This document shows, one piece after another, positions 1 to 4,888 of a stretch of 4,888 nucleotides of DNA (position 1 is its first letter; the number at the start of each line of letters is the position of its first letter). Origin of the DNA: a virus (taxonomy: Duplodnaviria > Heunggongvirae > Uroviricota > Caudoviricetes); the IMG/VR virus record IMGVR_UViG_3300029610_000167, positions 1-4,888 of that record; one strand, given 5' to 3'. Under the pieces are notes generated by a model. It did no database searches. It worked only from the letters and a program-made list of their open reading frames with translations, and was not told the origin of the DNA. Made by a program: the position numbers and the translations under genes.

Positions 1-261
1 CGCGATAACGTCGTCCGAATCATTAAAAACGCAATGCTGGATATCGGCCTGGCTATGCCTGTGAAAATCCGTATTGAGTGCCACATGCCGGATCGCCGTC
101 GCCGTGACCTGGATAATCTGCAAAAAGCCGCTTTTGACGCACTCACCAAAGCAGGTTTCTGGCTGGATGATGTTCAGGTCGTTGATTACCGTGTTGTGAA
201 GATGCCCGTTACCAAAGGTGGGAAGCTGGAGCTGACCATCACCGAACTGGGGAATGAATGA
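1..261 (+). CDS. rusA: Holliday junction resolvase RusA, C-terminal part (5' end lies upstream of the window)
   Basis: Frame 1 is open from base 1 and ends at TGA 259-261. The translation ([86 protein letters not shown]) matches lambdoid-prophage RusA almost residue for residue from memory. Partial gene. Confidence 0.9.
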
Positions 262-398
262 TGTTTGAGTCTTATATGGCAGAACGTCTTCGCCACCGCT
301 GGATACGCCTGCGCTTATATCGTTTCCCCGGTTCTGTTTTGACCGATTACCGGATACTGAAGAATTACGCCAAAACACTGAAAGGAGCTGCCGCATGA
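258..398 (+). CDS. ylcG: Small 46-aa lambdoid-prophage protein, YlcG-like
   Basis: ORF not in the supplied track (too short). ATG 258 (second ATG at 261) to TGA 396-398, translating [46 protein letters not shown]. Its start overlaps the rusA stop and its stop overlaps the next gene's ATG (ATGA), and a GGGGA lies just upstream. Length, position after rusA and sequence fit my recollection of DLP12 YlcG. Confidence 0.6.
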
Positions 399-1063
399 AT
401 ACCCAATATTTACAGTATGTCCGCGAGCAACTCATTGTGGCTACTGCTGATTTGAGCGGAGCAACGAAAGGCCAGCTTGAAGCCTGGCTGGAGCATGCAC
501 AATTTGATACTGGTACATATAAACGAAAGAAGCCGCGCATTCTGGATGAGGTAACGGGCAAGATGATTACGCTGGATAATCCGCCGATTTCCGGTAAGCA
601 GTCGTACGCAAAAGGTTCATCCATTGCACTGGTCAGCCAGGTTGAGTTCTCAACATCTTCATGGCGCCGCGCGGTTCTGTCTCTCGATGAACATCAGAAA
701 GCGTGGTTGCTGTGGAATTACAGCGAAAGTGTTCGCTGGGAGCATCAGGTTGCCATAACGCAGTGGGCATGGAATGAGTTTAAGGCTCTGTTAGGTACAA
801 GAAAAATTGCCAGTAAGACACAGGAACGCTTAAAGAAGTTGATCTGGCTGGCTGCACAGGATGTGAAGAACGAACTGGTAGGGCGTAAGACCTATGAATA
901 CAAAGAGCTGGCATCACTGGTGGGAGTGACATCAAAAAACTGGTCTGAGACATTCACTGAACGCTGGGTTGCAATGAAGCACATTTTTCTACAGCTTGAT
1001 AGCGAAGCTTTATTGCTTGTAACGAGAACACGTTCAAAACAAAAGGCGACATTTTCACAGTAA
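395..1063 (+). CDS. Putative late-gene antitermination protein Q (non-lambda Q family), 222 aa
   Basis: ATG 395 is preceded by AAAGGAG (381-387) at 7-nt spacing. The gene sits in the canonical slot for Q: after rusA/ylcG and just before a strong sigma70-like promoter and the lysis cassette. No similarity to lambda Q (no Cys-rich zinc-finger region); the call rests on synteny and size, not on recognised motifs. Confidence 0.55.
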   Translation: MNTQYLQYVREQLIVATADLSGATKGQLEAWLEHAQFDTGTYKRKKPRILDEVTGKMITLDNPPISGKQSYAKGSSIALVSQVEFSTSSWRRAVLSLDEHQKAWLLWNYSESVRWEHQVAITQWAWNEFKALLGTRKIASKTQERLKKLIWLAAQDVKNELVGRKTYEYKELASLVGVTSKNWSETFTERWVAMKHIFLQLDSEALLLVTRTRSKQKATFSQ

Positions 1064-1067
1064 AGCA

Positions 1068-1096
1068 TTGCTAAACTGGATTAAAAAGCATATATT
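1068..1096 (+). promoter_or_regulatory. Candidate late promoter (pR'-like): -35 TTGCTA (1068-1073), 17-bp spacer, -10 TATATT (1091-1096)
   Basis: Near-consensus sigma70 hexamers with optimal 17-bp spacing, starting 5 bp after the stop of the Q-like gene, which is where lambdoid phages place pR' and the Q-utilisation site. Predicted transcription start near 1103. Confidence 0.4.
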
Positions 1097-1151
1097 TTAT
1101 GCAAATCTGATATTCTGCCAATGTTGTACGCACTGGCAGTAATCCAAATTC

Positions 1152-1186
1152 AAGCCCGAGGTTTAAAGCCTTGGGCTTATTCTTTG
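1152..1186 (+). terminator. Candidate intrinsic terminator (tR'-like); may also terminate the reverse-strand gene
   Basis: 10-bp stem AAGCCCGAGG (1152-1161) pairing with CCTTGGGCTT (1169-1178), one G-U pair, 7-nt loop, followed by ATTCTTTG. It lies about 50-85 nt downstream of the candidate promoter. On the minus strand the same hairpin is followed by GAATTTGGATT and lies about 65 nt past the stop of the 1250-1561 gene. Confidence 0.4.
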
Positions 1187-1249
1187 AAGATAGTACACAA
1201 TAATTGTGAATTTGAGCACAAATCTAATAATCGTGGTTTTGGTTCTTTC

Positions 1250-1561
1250 TTATCTTGATAAAGCGTTATTAATATTTTGACAGTAACGGGAGGGAACCTT
1301 AATCGTGTGATTTTCGATTTCAGGTTCAAAAACTACAGAGTCAGCTTTGTAATAAGGGAAGTAAAGGATGTACTTTGGACCGGCAAAACCAGTGATATAT
1401 GTGTAGGCTTCTACTTTTGCCACCTCACCAAACCAAGTGTAACTTGAGTCGTTAGCCGTGATGCAGTCACCTTGAACATATTTTCCTTCAGAATCGGAGG
1501 CAAAGCATGCAGTGATTGTGCTGCACAGTAATAATATTAAAGTTATTTGAATTGCTTTCAT
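1250..1561 (-). CDS. Hypothetical exported protein or lipoprotein, ~103 aa, in an AT-rich moron; function unknown
   Basis: The track ORF 1250-1573 begins with TTG; the first ATG is at 1561-1559 with a weak GGAAAA upstream. The N-terminus MKAIQITLILLLCSTITAC-FASD has a basic n-region and hydrophobic core, with both a lipobox-like I-T-A-C and an A-x-A-type signal peptidase I site. The mature part has two Cys (GDC... and ...RYCQ) and is rich in Tyr. The gene is visibly AT-rich relative to its flanks and antisense to the late operon. Confidence 0.6.
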   Translation of the reverse strand: MKAIQITLILLLCSTITACFASDSEGKYVQGDCITANDSSYTWFGEVAKVEAYTYITGFAGPKYILYFPYYKADSVVFEPEIENHTIKVPSRYCQNINNALSR

Positions 1562-1872
1562 TTGTTTTTCCAATGCTTTGGTTCGTTAATTTGATTTTTT
1601 TCTAGCTTTCTTCATGAGCCCTTATAGATTTTTTAATTAATCTAACTAATCATCCTTCTTTGAAATACATCCTGAATTGGTGAGTCAGAACTCAGCTTAG
1701 GATAATCAGGAAATATTGCAACTAACTCTGAAACCAACAGCGTAGACCTTTTTTATCTTTGGTCTTTGAGGGAGTTTTAACCTCGTGCTTTGTCGTTAAA
1801 TTACCTCGTGAACAAACTTTCTGTCATTTAACGTCCCGGCCTTTTGTCGGCGGCGAAACATTGGCTATTCAT

Positions 1873-2178
1873 ATGCACGAAAAAGAGAGCCTTGCCGGAG
1901 CGTTCTGGCTCGTTTTGCTGATCATCGCAGGTTGGGGCGGTCTGGTCCGCTACCTGATAGATGTGAAGCAGAGTAAAGCAACGTGGAGTTGGATAAATGC
2001 TCTGGCTCAAATAGTGGTATCAGGATTCACCGGTGTTATTGGTGGCCTGATCAGCATCGAAAGTGGATTCAGTATTTACATGATTCTCGCGACAGCGGGG
2101 ATTAGTGGTGCGATGGGTTCGGTTGCACTGACGTACTTCTGGGAACGACTGACAGGGGTGAAAAATGCAAAATCTTAA
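1873..2178 (+). CDS. Putative class I holin (three predicted transmembrane segments), 101 aa; not lambda S-like
   Basis: Immediately upstream of and overlapping the endolysin gene by 14 nt. Three hydrophobic stretches (AFWLVLLIIAGWGGLVRYL; INALAQIVVSGFTGVIGGLISI; SIYMILATAGISGAMGSVALTYFW) and a short charged C-terminus ([11 protein letters not shown]). First ATG of the track ORF is at 1873; the 38 codons upstream of it start with TTG and look like read-through, not coding. Shine-Dalgarno is weak, so the start is uncertain. Confidence 0.7.
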   Translation: MHEKESLAGAFWLVLLIIAGWGGLVRYLIDVKQSKATWSWINALAQIVVSGFTGVIGGLISIESGFSIYMILATAGISGAMGSVALTYFWERLTGVKNAKS

Positions 2179-2641
2179 TCCTCAGCGCAAAGCCTTCCTC
2201 GATATGTTGGCGTGGTCAGAAGGAACGGATAATGGGCGACAACCGACACGTAACCACGGCTACGACGTTATTGTAGGTGGTGAGTTATTCACGGATTACT
2301 CCGATCATCCTCGCAAACTTGTCACGCTAAACCCAAAACTCAAATCAACAGCCGCCGGGCGCTACCAGCTTCTTTCCCGTTGGTGGGATGCCTATCGTAA
2401 GCAGCTTGGCCTGAAAGACTTCTCTCCCAAAAGCCAGGACGCTGTGGCATTGCAGCAGATTAAAGAGCGTGGCGCTTTACCGATGATTGATCGCGGTGAT
2501 ATCCGTCAGGCAATCGACCGTTGCAGCAATATCTGGGCTTCACTGCCGGGGGCTGGTTATGGTCAGTTCGAGCATAAGGCTGACAGTTTGATTTCAAAAT
2601 TCAAAGAAGCAGGCGGAACGGTCAGAGAGATTGAGGTATGA
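2165..2641 (+). CDS. R: Endolysin R, lambda-type lytic transglycosylase, 158 aa
   Basis: The translation is near-identical to lambda R as I recall it ([148 protein letters not shown]). Its stop overlaps the Rz start (ATGA at 2638-2641). Confidence 0.95.
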
Positions 2642-3099
2642 GCAGAGTAACCGAGATTATCTCCGCTCTGATTATCTGCATCATCGTCTGCCTGTCATGG
2701 GCTGTTAATCATTACCGTGATAACGCCATTACCTACAAAGCCCAGCGCGACAAAAATGCCAGAGAACTGAAGCTGGCGAACTCGACAATTACTGATATGC
2801 AGCTTCGCCAGCGTGATGTTGCTGACCTCGATGCAAAATACACGAAGGAGTTAGATGATGCGAAATCTGAAAATGATGCTCTGCGTGATGATGTTGCCGC
2901 TGGTCGTCGTCGGTTGCGCATCAAAGCAGTCTGTCCGTCCGTGCGTGAATCCACCACCGCCTCCGGCGTGGATAATGCAGCCTCCCCCCGACTGGCAGAC
3001 ACCGCTGAACGGAATTATTTCACCCTCAGAGATAGACTGATAATAATGCAGAAACAACTGGAAGGGACTCAGCAGTATATTAAGGAACAGTGCAGATAA
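2638..3099 (+). CDS. Rz: Spanin inner-membrane subunit Rz (i-spanin), 153 aa
   Basis: N-terminal transmembrane segment ([17 protein letters not shown]) followed by a charged coiled-coil-like periplasmic domain; the sequence closely matches lambda Rz from memory. Start is coupled to the R stop. Confidence 0.95.
2858..3040 (+). CDS. Rz1: Spanin outer-membrane lipoprotein subunit Rz1 (o-spanin), embedded in the +1 frame of Rz
   Basis: Entirely inside Rz in a different frame. AGGAG (2846-2850) lies 7 nt before ATG 2858; an in-frame ATG at 2855 is an alternative start and gives the 61-aa track ORF. Lipobox VVVGC, proline-rich [18 protein letters not shown]; matches lambda Rz1 from memory. Confidence 0.9.
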
Positions 3100-3123
3100 A
3101 GTTGCCCATATTGATGGGCAACT
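3100..3123. terminator. Perfect hairpin between convergent Rz and bor; candidate bidirectional terminator
   Basis: AGTTGCCCAT (3100-3109), 4-nt loop ATTG, ATGGGCAACT (3114-3123): a perfect 10-bp inverted repeat starting 1 nt after the Rz stop and ending 7 nt before the bor stop. The flanking U-tracts are only moderate on either strand. Confidence 0.5.
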
Positions 3124-3130
3124 CATGCAA

Positions 3131-3424
3131 TTATTGTGAGCAATATACCCGTGCTTCCAGCGGAGTATAAATGCCAAAAGTGATGAAACCGAGCAATCCA
3201 TTTACGAATGTTTGCTGGGTTTCTGTTTTAACAACATTTTCTGCGCCGCCACAAATTTTGGCTGCATCAACAGTTTTCTCCTGTCCAATTCCCGAAACGA
3301 AGAAGTGATGGGTGATGGTTTCCTTTGGTGTTACTGCTGTCGGTTTGTTTCCAACAGTAAATGTCTGTTGAGCACATCCTGTAATAAGCATTGCCAGAGC
3401 GGCAGAAAACAACATTTTTTTCAT
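3131..3424 (-). CDS. bor: Bor lipoprotein (serum-resistance / Iss-family outer-membrane lipoprotein), 97 aa
   Basis: From the ATG at 3424-3422 the product is MKKMLFSAALAMLITGCAQQTFTVGNKPTAVTPKETITHHFFVSGIGQEKTVDAAKICGGAENVVKTETQQTFVNGLLGFITFGIYTPLEARVYCSQ, near-identical to lambda Bor from memory. Lipobox LITGC; AGGA precedes the start. The track ORF 3131-3472 carries 16 extra N-terminal codons that I do not consider coding. Confidence 0.95.
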   Translation of the reverse strand: MKKMLFSAALAMLITGCAQQTFTVGNKPTAVTPKETITHHFFVSGIGQEKTVDAAKICGGAENVVKTETQQTFVNGLLGFITFGIYTPLEARVYCSQ

Positions 3425-3440
3425 CTTATTATCCTGCATT

Positions 3441-3469
3441 GTTAAAAACGGCAGAATCCTATGTGACAA
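3441..3469 (-). promoter_or_regulatory. Candidate bor promoter (minus strand): -35 TTGTCA, 17-bp spacer, -10 TTTAAC
   Basis: Read on the minus strand: TTGTCA (complement of 3464-3469), 17-nt spacer, TTTAAC (complement of 3441-3446), about 20 nt upstream of the bor ATG. Hexamer match only, so a weak call. Confidence 0.3.
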
Positions 3470-3854
3470 CAATTAAACGATAGTTAAATGAATTGATGAA
3501 AATTAAAACTACACAGGTGGACGCTCAGACTATTGGAGGGAGTTGGGGACACTCAGAATCCTGTGGAATGAAATAAACCGCTCTATCTGTCCTTTACCCT
3601 TTTAGCTGCGCTGTATCGTCGCCGTATTCCCGCATTAACAATGACCGTAGCCCGACGGGGAACTCCTCTGCGCGAGTGTGCGGAAATAATCAAAAACGAT
3701 GCACACCGGGTTTTTACCGCGCTAATTATTCGCGGGTTTGTCCCTCATGCTCGCAAGTTCTGTGTGGGGGCGAAGAAACAGGACATGTATTCTAGTCTGT
3801 GCGACCGTGGTCGTTCAGATTTTCATTCGTTTTGCGGAGTAAACCAGAGCGGTT

Positions 3855-3905
3855 GGCGGGTCCTCCTGGCGATTTGAAACACCGGGGGGCTGCGGACACG
3901 CGGAA
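3855..3905. other. Candidate cos region (cosQ/cosN-like) preceding the terminase genes
   Basis: GGCGGGTCCTCCTGGCGATTTGAAACACCG followed by GGGGGCTGCGGACACGCGGAAAACGG resembles, from memory, the lambda right end (ACGGGTCCTTTCCGGTGATCCGACAGGTTACG) followed by cosN (GGGCGGCGACCT) and CGCGGGTTTTCG. It is divergent, and the exact nick positions cannot be set from sequence. Location ~110 bp upstream of the terminase small subunit gene is as expected. Confidence 0.35.
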
Positions 3906-4016
3906 AACGGCTGGTTTTTTGCATTTTATCGGCATCATCATCTTTTATCTAACCTGTTGATATTTCAGTTGTGAAATTATTCACGATGTCGATTCGCTTA
4001 AATATTGTTCATCATC

Positions 4017-4523
4017 ATGGATAACGAACTGAAAAATCTTCGCCTCAATATTAACCAGCTGGCGGCGCTGACTAATCTGCATCGTCAGACCGTCGCAAGT
4101 AGACTGAGCAATGTTGAGCCTGCCCCCGGAAGTAACTCCCGCCTCAAGCTGTATTCGGTTCTGGATATTCTCAGGGAATTACTGGGCAGGACTACGACGC
4201 CGGAGCTGGTTGCTGTTGACAAAATGACACCGCCGGATCGAAAGGCATGGTTTCAGTCTGAGCGGGAGCGCCTCAAGTTTCAGCAGGAGACCGGAGAGCT
4301 TATCCCGGCCTCAGAAGTCAGCCGGGAGTTTGCCTCAATGGCAAAAGTTGTCGTTCAGGTACTGGAAACGCTACCGGATATTCTCGAGCGTGACTGTGCA
4401 ATGACACCGTCAGCCGTCGTCAGGGTGCAAAAAGTCATAGATGACCTGCGGGATCAGATTGCCATGAAGGTTGAGCTGGCAGAGTCGCCGGAACAGGAGG
4501 ACAGTTTGTCACAAGAGGAGTAA
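4017..4523 (+). CDS. Putative terminase small subunit (Nu1-like DNA-recognition subunit), 168 aa
   Basis: Immediately upstream of the GpA-family large terminase, with its stop 3 nt before that gene's ATG. The N-terminus has a helix-turn-helix-like segment (LNINQLAALTNLHRQTVASRL), and the C-terminus is acidic. The track ORF starts at TTG 4005; the first ATG is 4017. No clear Shine-Dalgarno, so the start is uncertain. No clear sequence identity to lambda Nu1. Confidence 0.65.
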   Translation: MDNELKNLRLNINQLAALTNLHRQTVASRLSNVEPAPGSNSRLKLYSVLDILRELLGRTTTPELVAVDKMTPPDRKAWFQSERERLKFQQETGELIPASEVSREFASMAKVVVQVLETLPDILERDCAMTPSAVVRVQKVIDDLRDQIAMKVELAESPEQEDSLSQEE

Positions 4524-4526
4524 GCC

Positions 4527-4888
4527 ATGCGACAGGCCACGGCGGCGGAAGTCAGAAAGAATACCGCCGGGATCATAAAGGCACCGCGTCGGATGCCTGT
4601 TGCCGAGGCCGTTCATAAGTACATGCGGGTTCCCGTGGGCGTCGGAAACTCCGTCGAATGGGATCCGCAACTCGCCCCCTATGTCGTGGAGCCGATGAAC
4701 TGCCTGGCATCACGTGAGTATGATGCTGTTATTTTTGTTGGTCCGGCCCGAACAGGTAAAACAATTGGGCTGATTGACGGCTGGGTGGTGTACAACGTGG
4801 TGTGTGACCCGTCGGATATGCTTATCGTCCAGATGACGGAAGAAAAAGCGCGTGAACACTCCAAAAAACGTCTGGCCAGAACATTTCG
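4527..4888 (+). CDS. Terminase large subunit, GpA family (N-terminal ATPase region; continues past the window end)
   Basis: Frame 3 is open from ATG 4527 to the window end and is absent from the track because there is no stop. AAGAGGAG (4513-4520) lies 6 nt upstream. The translation contains a Walker A P-loop, VIFVGPARTGKTIGLIDG, in the position where lambda gpA has its NVVKSARVGYSKMLLG segment, and the overall layout resembles the gpA N-terminus. Confidence 0.85.
   Translation, partial: MRQATAAEVRKNTAGIIKAPRRMPVAEAVHKYMRVPVGVGNSVEWDPQLAPYVVEPMNCLASREYDAVIFVGPARTGKTIGLIDGWVVYNVVCDPSDMLIVQMTEEKAREHSKKRLARTF

Follow-up and report, generated by a model that had tools for sequence, protein, structure and literature searches.

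Organization of the late-control and lysis region

The window analyzed here is the whole 4,888-base stretch of DNA, and its gene content marks it as the part of a lambdoid prophage that holds late control and lysis, read here from sequence (Table 1). Bases 92 to 4888 are 100% identical to one ENA metagenome contig and 99.8% identical to two NCBI assemblies, and the open reading frames (ORFs) for Q, holin, endolysin, Rz/Rz1, bor, and terminase are intact throughout the window. A GpA-type terminase comes next in three identical loci (L005, L006, and L009). Besides an antisense gene carried in an AT-rich cargo segment ahead of the holin gene, bor is the second antisense gene within the late transcription unit.

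Table 1. Features of the 4,888-base window, in order of position
Feature	Position	Strand	Evidence or remark
End of rusA, then ylcG-like ORF	5′ of Q gene	+	
Q antiterminator gene, Q82 family, 222 aa	395-1063	+	Pfam PF06323, E = 5e-96
Late promoter pR′ (putative)	1068-1096	+	Promoter scan, 9/12; geometry common to 32 distinct Q82-type loci
Transcription start, +1 (inferred)	1103	+	First A of AAATCTG
Sigma-70-dependent pause element (predicted)	1108-1119	+	Match to the description in PMC5001585; near-invariant across Q82-type loci
Leader RNA hairpin CTGCCA/TGGCAG	1115-1139	+	Folding
Intrinsic terminator tR′ (predicted)	1152-1186	+	Terminator scan, folding
AT-rich cargo segment (moron)	1179 to ~1745		PhiR47_2 alignment; GC 30-43%
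Antisense cargo gene, 103 aa	1250-1561	−	ORF list
Conserved untranslated leader, directly 5′ of holin	1746-1872	+	PhiR47_2 alignment
Holin	1873-2178	+	Pfam PF16083/PF03245 and PHROG 90 support lysis cassette 1873-3099
Endolysin	2165-2641	+	PHROG 90
Rz	2638-3099	+	Embedded Rz1 at 2855-3040 (ORF list)
bor lipoprotein gene	3131-3424	−	Pfam PF06291, E = 3.7e-31
Small terminase subunit	4017-4523	+	PF07278, PHROG 141
Large terminase subunit, start of gene	up to 4888	+	With the small subunit, the next late genes

The Q82 family (PF06323) is one of three unrelated Q families, and the Q protein of phage 82 has been characterized biochemically; a search for solved structures of the Q protein found none. 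By BLASTP, the Q protein encoded in the window shares 211 of 222 residues (95%) with that of phage 82, and it ends 7 codons early, at a TAA that is premature relative to phage 82, PhiR47_2, and phage 434. Over the 3′ end of the Q gene and the −35 hexamer of the promoter behind it, the DNA matches the phage 82 record at 94% identity; that record ends at −19. The substitutions cluster in this very stretch, where they truncate Q by 7 residues and turn a −35 of TTGCAA into TTGCTA. In the window, mutations affect both half-sites of a CII-type site, annotated as paQ in phage 434, of which phage 82, 434, and PhiR47_2 carry intact copies.

A putative late promoter and pause element follow the Q gene

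Immediately behind the Q gene, a scan for promoter-like sites returned a candidate for the late promoter pR′, composed of the −35 hexamer TTGCTA (1068 to 1073), a 17-bp spacer (1074 to 1090), and the −10 hexamer TATATT (1091 to 1096), with the −35 beginning 5 bp past the stop codon of the PF06323 gene. The initial annotation had placed a near-consensus promoter directly after a Q-like gene; its position is borne out, while "near-consensus" is slightly generous for a consensus score of 9/12. This score alone is within chance, with 9 such sites in the window compared to 6.9 ± 2.8 in shuffled sequences, and pR′ stands above chance because it lies 5 bp from the Q stop codon and because its geometry is repeated at the same distance from Q in 32 loci. 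The hexamer TTGCTA differs from the TTGCAA of 29 of the 31 other distinct loci, although the two have equal consensus scores.

Downstream of the −10 hexamer lie the parts of a predicted sigma-70-dependent pause element, namely, TG at 1108 and 1109, a single a, TATTCT at 1111 to 1116 (+9 to +14), GCC at 1117 to 1119 (+15 to +17), and a T at 1127 (+25); with +1 at 1103, the extended −10-like element TGaTATTCT covers 1108 to 1116 (+6 to +14). At the phage 82 late promoter, the −10-like pause-inducing sequence is nearer consensus than that of lambda and includes an extended −10, the discriminator GCC is found at +15 to +17, sigma-70 is engaged at a transcript length of 21, and pausing takes place at +25/+26, with U at +25 as the 3′ base (PMC5001585). 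Our match to that promoter is made to features described in the text, since the alignable phage 82 sequence ends at −19. A pause is accordingly predicted at 1127/1128 (+25/+26) in the window. A start near 1103, as initially proposed, would be exactly the position that aligns these features, and we infer that A1103 puts three published phage 82 landmarks in register. A1103 is also the first of three As, and a start of this kind would agree with a cited paper whose title concerns slippage at the late promoter of phage 82. The Rfam model for the isrJ RNA, considered below, starts at 1100, 3 nt upstream of +1.

The spacer itself carries the pattern AAnnnrAyTrAAw and contains 1.19 bits per position across the 32 loci, more conservation than is expected of a promoter spacer. 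Because the Q-binding element (QBE) of phage 82 is located within −31 to +30, such an element would be expected in the spacer, and we regard 1074 to 1090 as a candidate Q-binding region.

The promoter module is conserved across Q82-type loci

When 1060 to 1190 was used as the query in a distant blastn search, Q82-like genes followed by the module turned up in Klebsiella and Enterobacter phages, PPompW/Stx2a phages, phage 434, and Gifsy-1. From a Q-protein scan of one genome per species came 24 further loci, with Q identities of 61 to 77%, in Citrobacter, Raoultella, Klebsiella, Enterobacter, Leclercia, Buttiauxella, Franconibacter, Superficieibacter, Escherichia, and Shigella. Altogether, the module has the same place behind 32 distinct genes of the Q82 family, from about ten genera of enterobacteria, Salmonella Gifsy-1 included. 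Its geometry is fixed in the 32 sequences: the −35 hexamer is at the Q stop codon (TTGCAA in 29 of 32), a 17-bp spacer separates it from a −10 hexamer that is mostly TATATT or CATATT, and past the −10 comes (A)AAT(C/T)TGATATnnT, followed by GCC or CGCC. The information content per position reaches 1.74 bits in the −35, 1.48 in the −10, 1.49 in +1 to +5, and 1.46 in the pause element, compared to 0.58 just downstream and 0.84 in the upstream coding DNA.

In every Q82-family locus examined, a promoter is present at the Q stop codon, and a G+C-rich hairpin with a U-tract lies between +28 and +100 in 33 of 33 loci. One such comparison is with PhiR47_2, for which a complete phage genome has been deposited (host, E. 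coli C); it is 96% identical to the window from the promoter through the terminator stem, and in it the pause element, the −10 hexamer, and the hairpins are unchanged. The practical value of these data is in annotation: a Q82-type late promoter can be recognized by the signature TTGCAA, 17 bp, TATATT, about 11 bp, TGATATnnT, and GCC or CGCC, directly after a PF06323 gene.

The leader RNA is predicted to fold into a 5′ hairpin and a terminator

The terminator scan placed tR′ at a 12-pair, G+C-rich stem (1152 to 1178) followed by TTATTCTTTG, a span of +50 to +84. Its predicted fold has a free energy of −19.2 kcal/mol (z = −4.2), and none of 200 shuffled sequences was as stable. On the minus strand the fold reaches only −13.1 kcal/mol (z = −2.0), with a poor U-tract (score, 2.18) behind it; the plus strand is stabler by 6 kcal/mol because two G-U pairs become A-C mismatches on the minus strand. 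Phage phi80 has the same hairpin, annotated there as a terminator. Termination at tR′ is predicted to yield a short RNA of about 81 to 84 nt.

The U-tract of tR′ is interrupted (TTATTCTT). It is also chimeric, reading UUAUUCUUU in the window and UUUUCUGUUU in PhiR47_2, because the junction with the cargo falls at the terminator stem, and its T-tract score is 3.13, compared to 4.05 in PhiR47_2. Given the interruption and the lower score, termination at tR′ may be somewhat leakier than in phage 82.

Upstream of the terminator, the arms CTGCCA (1115 to 1120) and TGGCAG (1134 to 1139) enclose an inner 3-bp stem and form a hairpin of −10.8 kcal/mol (z = −3.3 compared to shuffled sequences); for the entire leader, 1103 to 1186, z is −4.7. 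The initial annotation had noted both this small inverted repeat and a terminator-like hairpin about 50 to 85 nt downstream of the promoter, and both are present as described, the former as a hairpin at the 5′ end of the leader RNA. The 5′ arm of this hairpin extends over the GCC discriminator and the last two bases of the −10-like hexamer. A hairpin beginning at the same position occurs in most relatives, where it is built from other arms, such as TTGCC/GGCAA, TGCCAA/TTGGCA, or ATGCTGCC/GGCGGCAT, and in some of them the arms include G-U pairs, which are possible in the plus-strand RNA only. In leaders of the GCC type, the hairpin has z values of −1.5 to −3.8, at or below −2 in all but two, whereas the 4-bp stem of the GTCG/CGAC type is no different from chance, and five loci, phage 434 included, have a much shorter leader with no hairpin at all. 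Since most relatives carry the hairpin, the GTCG/CGAC stem is weak, and five loci do without one, the element appears to be recurrent yet dispensable for Q82-type control. RNAalifold, run on a MAFFT alignment of 23 leaders, recovered the terminator only and missed the 5′ hairpin because its arms are out of register between sequence types; we therefore assessed this hairpin by folds of individual sequences and their shuffles and make no formal claim of covariation.

IsrJ appears to be the leader RNA of a Q82-type promoter

The Rfam isrJ model (RF01393) aligned at full length to 1100 to 1179 of the window with 27.1 bits, below its gathering score of 37 (E = 0.055 for the window and 0.0025 for 221 bases). 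Matches above this threshold were found at +1 of the Q82-type promoter in seven loci, Gifsy-1 and six others from Raoultella, Enterobacter, Citrobacter, Klebsiella, and Leclercia, and the relatives with the GTCG/CGAC hairpin gave 44 to 100 bits. Because isrJ matches sit exactly at the promoter +1 in many genera, Salmonella IsrJ appears to be the short terminated leader RNA of a Q82-type late promoter, which is not stated in the literature examined on IsrJ and on short pR′ RNAs. IsrJ of Salmonella Gifsy-1 and the predicted leader of the window have the same promoter, start region, and pause element and the same hairpin-linker-terminator layout; they differ in the terminator stem and in the first hairpin, which is GTCG/CGAC in isrJ and TGCCA/TGGCA in the window. 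Gifsy-1 differs further in that an isrK-orf45-anrP block, recognized by Rfam as a c4/ant-type module, lies between its Q gene and the isrJ promoter. Gifsy-1 antQ is 71% identical to the Q of the window, and it looks as if the isrJ promoter, not isrK, is the cognate late promoter of AntQ.

These matches raise the question of whether the main product of the locus is a trans-acting sRNA of the IsrJ type, with the promoter and terminator kept for this RNA instead of, or besides, late control. The end-to-end alignment and the seven true isrJ loci at the same position after Q82-type genes favor such a reading, as does the architecture of the leader, i.e., a 5′ hairpin, an A/U-rich linker, and a terminator; moreover, IsrJ is reported to affect Salmonella invasion, and in Stx phages the short RNA from pR′ is an sRNA that binds Hfq. 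We nevertheless consider it unlikely, given that the score of the window falls short of the gathering score, that its 5′ hairpin and terminator sequences are unlike those of the isrJ type, and that conservation is highest at the DNA elements (the −35, the −10, and the pause element) and not in the body of the RNA. The five relatives whose much shorter leaders lack the 5′ hairpin also speak against it.

The cargo segment begins at the terminator stem

In PhiR47_2 and the listed E. coli matches, similarity to the window ends exactly after GGGCTT (1178) and returns near 1745, about 125 bp before the holin gene; the cargo site thus begins where the terminator stem ends. Among the E. coli matches listed, none of 878 genomes covers 80% of the query, and searches of complete E. 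coli genomes and of the phage collection came up empty for 1190 to 1700, even with the sensitivity of blastn. The GC content of the segment is 30 to 43%, compared to about 50% in the flanking genes. It combines presence or absence between collinear relatives with deviating base composition, as a moron does, and it contains no tRNAs, though these are common in relatives.

The single gene in the segment encodes a 103-residue protein with a signal peptide, a lipobox-like ITAC, two conserved cysteines, and a model with an SH3-like barrel; it is a predicted small exported protein of an unnamed family. An exhaustive HMMER search gathered 40 representative clusters of about 95 to 100 residues, with two conserved cysteines and the core GDCITP..YSWYG.YA.VEA, and the family had no name in any curated library searched. 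The cargo protein carries a single source name, Escherichia fergusonii. Exact copies of the cargo are present in many assemblies, always between a Q82-type Q gene and the same holin gene. A homologue with 68% identity occupies the same antisense position in a Citrobacter locus, after a different terminator, and this exported-protein family recurs in the Q-to-holin site.

An 841-bp block was found to be 98.3 to 100% identical among prophages with three different head/packaging modules, which suggests a recent spread by recombination among viable phages. This result bears on the possibility that the locus is a decaying relic of a defective prophage, in which the promoter, Q, or the terminator has stopped working and the lysis genes are either silent or switched on by other means. 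The cluster of substitutions at the Q 3′ end and the −35, with the loss of 7 residues from Q and the change from TTGCAA to TTGCTA, would be compatible with decay, and so would the U-tract interrupted at the cargo junction. We judge a relic very improbable, however, as all ORFs in the window are intact, the altered −35 scores the same as the usual one, and the pause element, −10, and hairpins equal those of PhiR47_2, a complete phage genome; the nearly identical 841-bp block across three packaging modules points the same way.

Predicted late transcription across the antisense cargo gene

The distance to the holin start (1873) is about 690 bp from tR′ and about 770 bp from pR′, while in relatives free of cargo the same promoter lies about 300 bp upstream of the same holin gene. 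The promoter scan found no plus-strand promoter-like sites between 1231 and 3019. Because no other plus-strand promoter precedes the holin gene, the late transcript would, on available evidence, have to cross the antisense gene. The initial annotation had proposed that an antiterminated transcript traverses some 700 bp of AT-rich DNA and a reverse-oriented gene before reaching the holin gene, and both the distance and the minus-strand ORF in its path agree with this proposal.

One way to avoid such a crossing would be a true late promoter at 1600 to 1870, which would leave 1068 to 1186 as a separate small transcription unit. The long interval that the cargo puts between the Q-proximal promoter and the holin gene could be taken in its favor, as could conservation of the 127 bp before the holin gene. 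These same 127 bp (1746 to 1872) are also found in PhiR47_2, downstream of the same pR′/tR′ pair, and they hold no significant structure (z = 0.05). We rejected a late promoter in this region, since the scan found no plus-strand site there, and the presence of a promoter at the Q stop codon in every Q82-family locus examined makes it extremely improbable.

The tR′-to-holin gap is a variable cargo site in Q82-type relatives, anywhere from about 250 bp to over 2 kb long and containing tRNAs, co-oriented ORFs, IS elements, or opposite-strand genes. Genes on the opposite strand include gogA in Gifsy-1, a 109-aa ORF in Klebsiella phage ST11-VIM1phi8.1, the porin gene nmpC between quuD and essD in DLP12 of E. 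coli K-12, and, in two other loci, a reverse ORF of 360 aa and a pair of 123 and 68 aa. To find cargo in antisense orientation between Q and the lysis genes is therefore ordinary and common, and the occurrence of cargo in both orientations among relatives argues that the orientation seen here is incidental.

It is plausible that late expression and the cargo gene are mutually antagonistic by convergent transcription, as had been suggested, and one may speculate that cargo transcripts, if made, could run back over pR′ into Q; in the minus direction, the only hairpin past the cargo stop codon is the reverse face of tR′. A stronger version holds that the convergent layout was selected, with read-through silencing the cargo gene in lytic growth and cargo transcription in the lysogen crossing the reversed tR′, pR′, and Q and thereby damping the lytic switch. 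The weaker fold and poor U-tract of tR′ on the minus strand could let such transcripts through, the Citrobacter homologue is equally antisense after its own, different tR′, and, in the window, neither half-site of the CII-type paQ site known from phage 434 has escaped mutation. We regard selection for convergence as quite unlikely, however: no minus-strand promoter-like site in 1562 to 1760 passed the scan, the DNA upstream of the cargo gene is not conserved between the window and the Citrobacter homologue, and, again, cargo genes occur in both orientations among relatives. Still less likely is the idea that the leader is a divergent trans-acting RNA of the IsrJ class and/or that antisense transcription of the cargo acts as a paQ-like brake in place of the mutated CII-type site.

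A probable phage-82-type switch for late gene expression

Altogether, the results make it highly probable that the locus serves a lambdoid prophage of the phage 82 type as its late-gene control module, and the proposal of a pR′/tR′ pair that requires read-through by Q-modified polymerase is supported by the PF06323 Q gene and by the conserved promoter and terminator. This reading is built on gene order, identity to a characterized system, conservation of the cis elements, and predicted RNA structures, and from these we infer the start, pause, and termination sites, the dependence on Q, and whatever interference there may be between the cargo gene and late transcription. In the lysogen, host sigma-70 RNA polymerase would start constitutively at pR′, at about A1103, and would pause at about +25 when sigma-70 rebinds the extended −10-like sequence TGaTATTCT-GCC at 1108 to 1119. 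Without Q, transcription would end at tR′ (1152 to 1178) and an RNA of about 80 nt would be released. After induction, Q would bind DNA of the promoter region and load onto the paused complex, and the Q-loaded polymerase would become resistant to intrinsic and Rho-dependent termination, as an untranslated leader of 690 nt would demand; it would then read through tR′ and about 690 nt of untranslated AT-rich cargo into the genes for holin, endolysin, and Rz/Rz1, across antisense bor, and on into the terminase genes. The module would be a textbook phage-82-type Q-antitermination switch with cargo in the usual site.

Comparison with known systems

The closest system is phage 82. Besides the 95%-identical Q protein and the similarity of the DNA around the end of the Q gene and the −35, the window shares with it the extended −10-like pause element, the GCC at +15 to +17, and the U at +25 (PMC5001585), and a short terminated RNA is expected in the window, as has been reported for phage 82. 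The window differs in its shorter Q, its TTGCTA hexamer, and its cargo, which abuts the terminator stem and alters the U-tract.

DLP12 and Gifsy-1 resemble the window in having an opposite-strand gene, nmpC or gogA, respectively, between the Q-proximal promoter/terminator and the holin gene, and DLP12 also has bor in antisense orientation further downstream. Their cargo is a porin in DLP12 and an effector protease in Gifsy-1, both unrelated to the 103-aa exported protein of the window. StxS, the short pR′ RNA of Shiga toxin phages, is similar in that it is produced by tR′ termination in the lysogen and that the stx cargo of these phages lies in the same Q-to-holin gap; in contrast, stx is co-oriented and dependent on read-through by Q, the Q and promoter types are different, and StxS has shown Hfq binding and targets, while the RNA of the window is a prediction.

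The initial annotation had described the locus as mirroring the pR′-6S RNA-tR′ module of lambda, and the predicted logic is the same: both have a constitutive promoter after Q with the late genes downstream, at the same genome position, both have Q loading at a sigma-70-dependent promoter-proximal pause, and in both a terminator gives rise to a short RNA in the lysogen. Membership in the lambda type was rejected, since the window has a PF06323 Q and a −10-like element at +9 to +14, not at +1 to +6 as in lambda. The lambda Q belongs to PF03589 and is without sequence similarity to that of the window, the lambda pause falls at +16/17 and not at +25/26, with its pause element 8 to 9 bp closer to the start, and 6S RNA is about 194 nt long, compared to about 80 nt predicted here. 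Because the Q family differs and the pause is expected at +25 and not at +16, the module of the window is best described as analogous, not homologous, to that of lambda, its closest homologue being that of phage 82.

IsrJ appears to be the leader RNA of Q82-type late promoters

IsrJ, a Salmonella sRNA family (Rfam RF01393), maps precisely onto the beginning of the Q82-type late promoter in seven loci belonging to six genera, and thus seems to be the short leader RNA (pR' to tR') of these promoters. The accessible papers on IsrJ, IsrK, and StxS contain no description of IsrJ as such a leader. Further Rfam families were matched in the relatives, either in the cargo gap (the tR'-to-holin interval) or further downstream, and are collected with the other features in the table.

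Features of the window and of loci from related prophages and phages (L handles)
Feature	Sequence	Coordinates	Strand	Remark
IsrJ (RF01393)	L011	2534-2608		Gifsy-1
IsrJ (RF01393)	L014	2033-2109
IsrJ (RF01393)	L018	2033-2106
IsrJ (RF01393)	L022	4206-4284
IsrJ (RF01393)	L028	4206-4276
IsrJ (RF01393)	L041	4206-4277
IsrJ (RF01393)	L042	4207-4285
IsrJ-equivalent stretch	window	1100-1179
STnc100 (Rfam)	L014	2191-2385		Cargo gap, Klebsiella phage KO-TP1
isrI (Rfam)	L011	3104-3201		Cargo gap, Gifsy-1
isrI (Rfam)	L022	4714-4810		Cargo gap, Citrobacter youngae prophage
cspA thermoregulator (Rfam)	L028	7032-7457		Further downstream, Raoultella locus
isrK region	L011	1685-1883		Gifsy-1
Altered CII half-sites	window	1060-1073	-	TAGC...TTAC
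Sigma-70-like site	window	1094-1121	-	TTGGCA-16-TAAAAT, 10/12
Shared block	window	1040-1880		Q 3' end, pR', tR', cargo, holin 5' end
Cargo gene	window	1250-1561	-	103-aa predicted exported protein
bor-to-small-terminase interval	window	3425-4016		~590 bp
Terminator-like hairpin	window	3900-3922		Within the preceding interval

The 3' end of Q and minus-strand sites over pR'

The Q open reading frame comprises 229 codons in phage 82, PhiR47_2, 434, and PPompW, running through the pR' -35 to a TAA stop within the spacer. In the window, Q ends 7 codons earlier through a C-to-T change (CAGCAA to CAGTAA) in region 1058-1084, where substitutions are clustered, with four in 19 bp compared to approximately 94% identity elsewhere. 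The phage 434 record carries, on the minus strand over the pR' -35, annotations for a CII-binding site (TTGC-N6-TTGC) and a paQ -35; this CII-binding site is unaltered in phage 82, PhiR47_2, and PPompW, and both of its half-sites are altered in the window. The minus-strand sigma-70-like site outscores pR', overlaps the pR' -10 and pause element, and is directed back into Q. Present only in window/PhiR47_2-type sequences, it may be a chance by-product of the A/T-rich -10 region.

A shared block with a cargo gene

Loci L003-L009 share 98.3-100% identity over the block that stretches between the 3' end of Q and the 5' end of the holin gene. These prophages carry packaging and head modules of three kinds (HK97-type TerL with HNH, lambda Nu1/A type, and DUF1441/GpA type), so the block moves as a mosaic unit. 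The cargo-gene product, possibly a lipoprotein, belongs to an unnamed family of approximately 40 representative clusters, characterised by a pair of conserved cysteines and the core motif GDCITP..YSWYG.YA.VEA, and a confident AlphaFold model predicts a small SH3-like barrel. Further along the window, the bor-to-small-terminase interval, which contains the hairpin, yielded no convincing ORF and no family match; it may contain the packaging site or gene remnants.

An immunity-like module in Gifsy-1

In Gifsy-1, the isrK region between antQ and anrP is also matched by the Rfam families for C4 antisense RNA and its c4-a1b1 target; thus, the isrK-orf45-anrP block resembles the c4/icd/ant immunity module of the P1 type, seemingly inserted so as to separate the Gifsy-1 Q gene from the late promoter cognate to it (isrJ).
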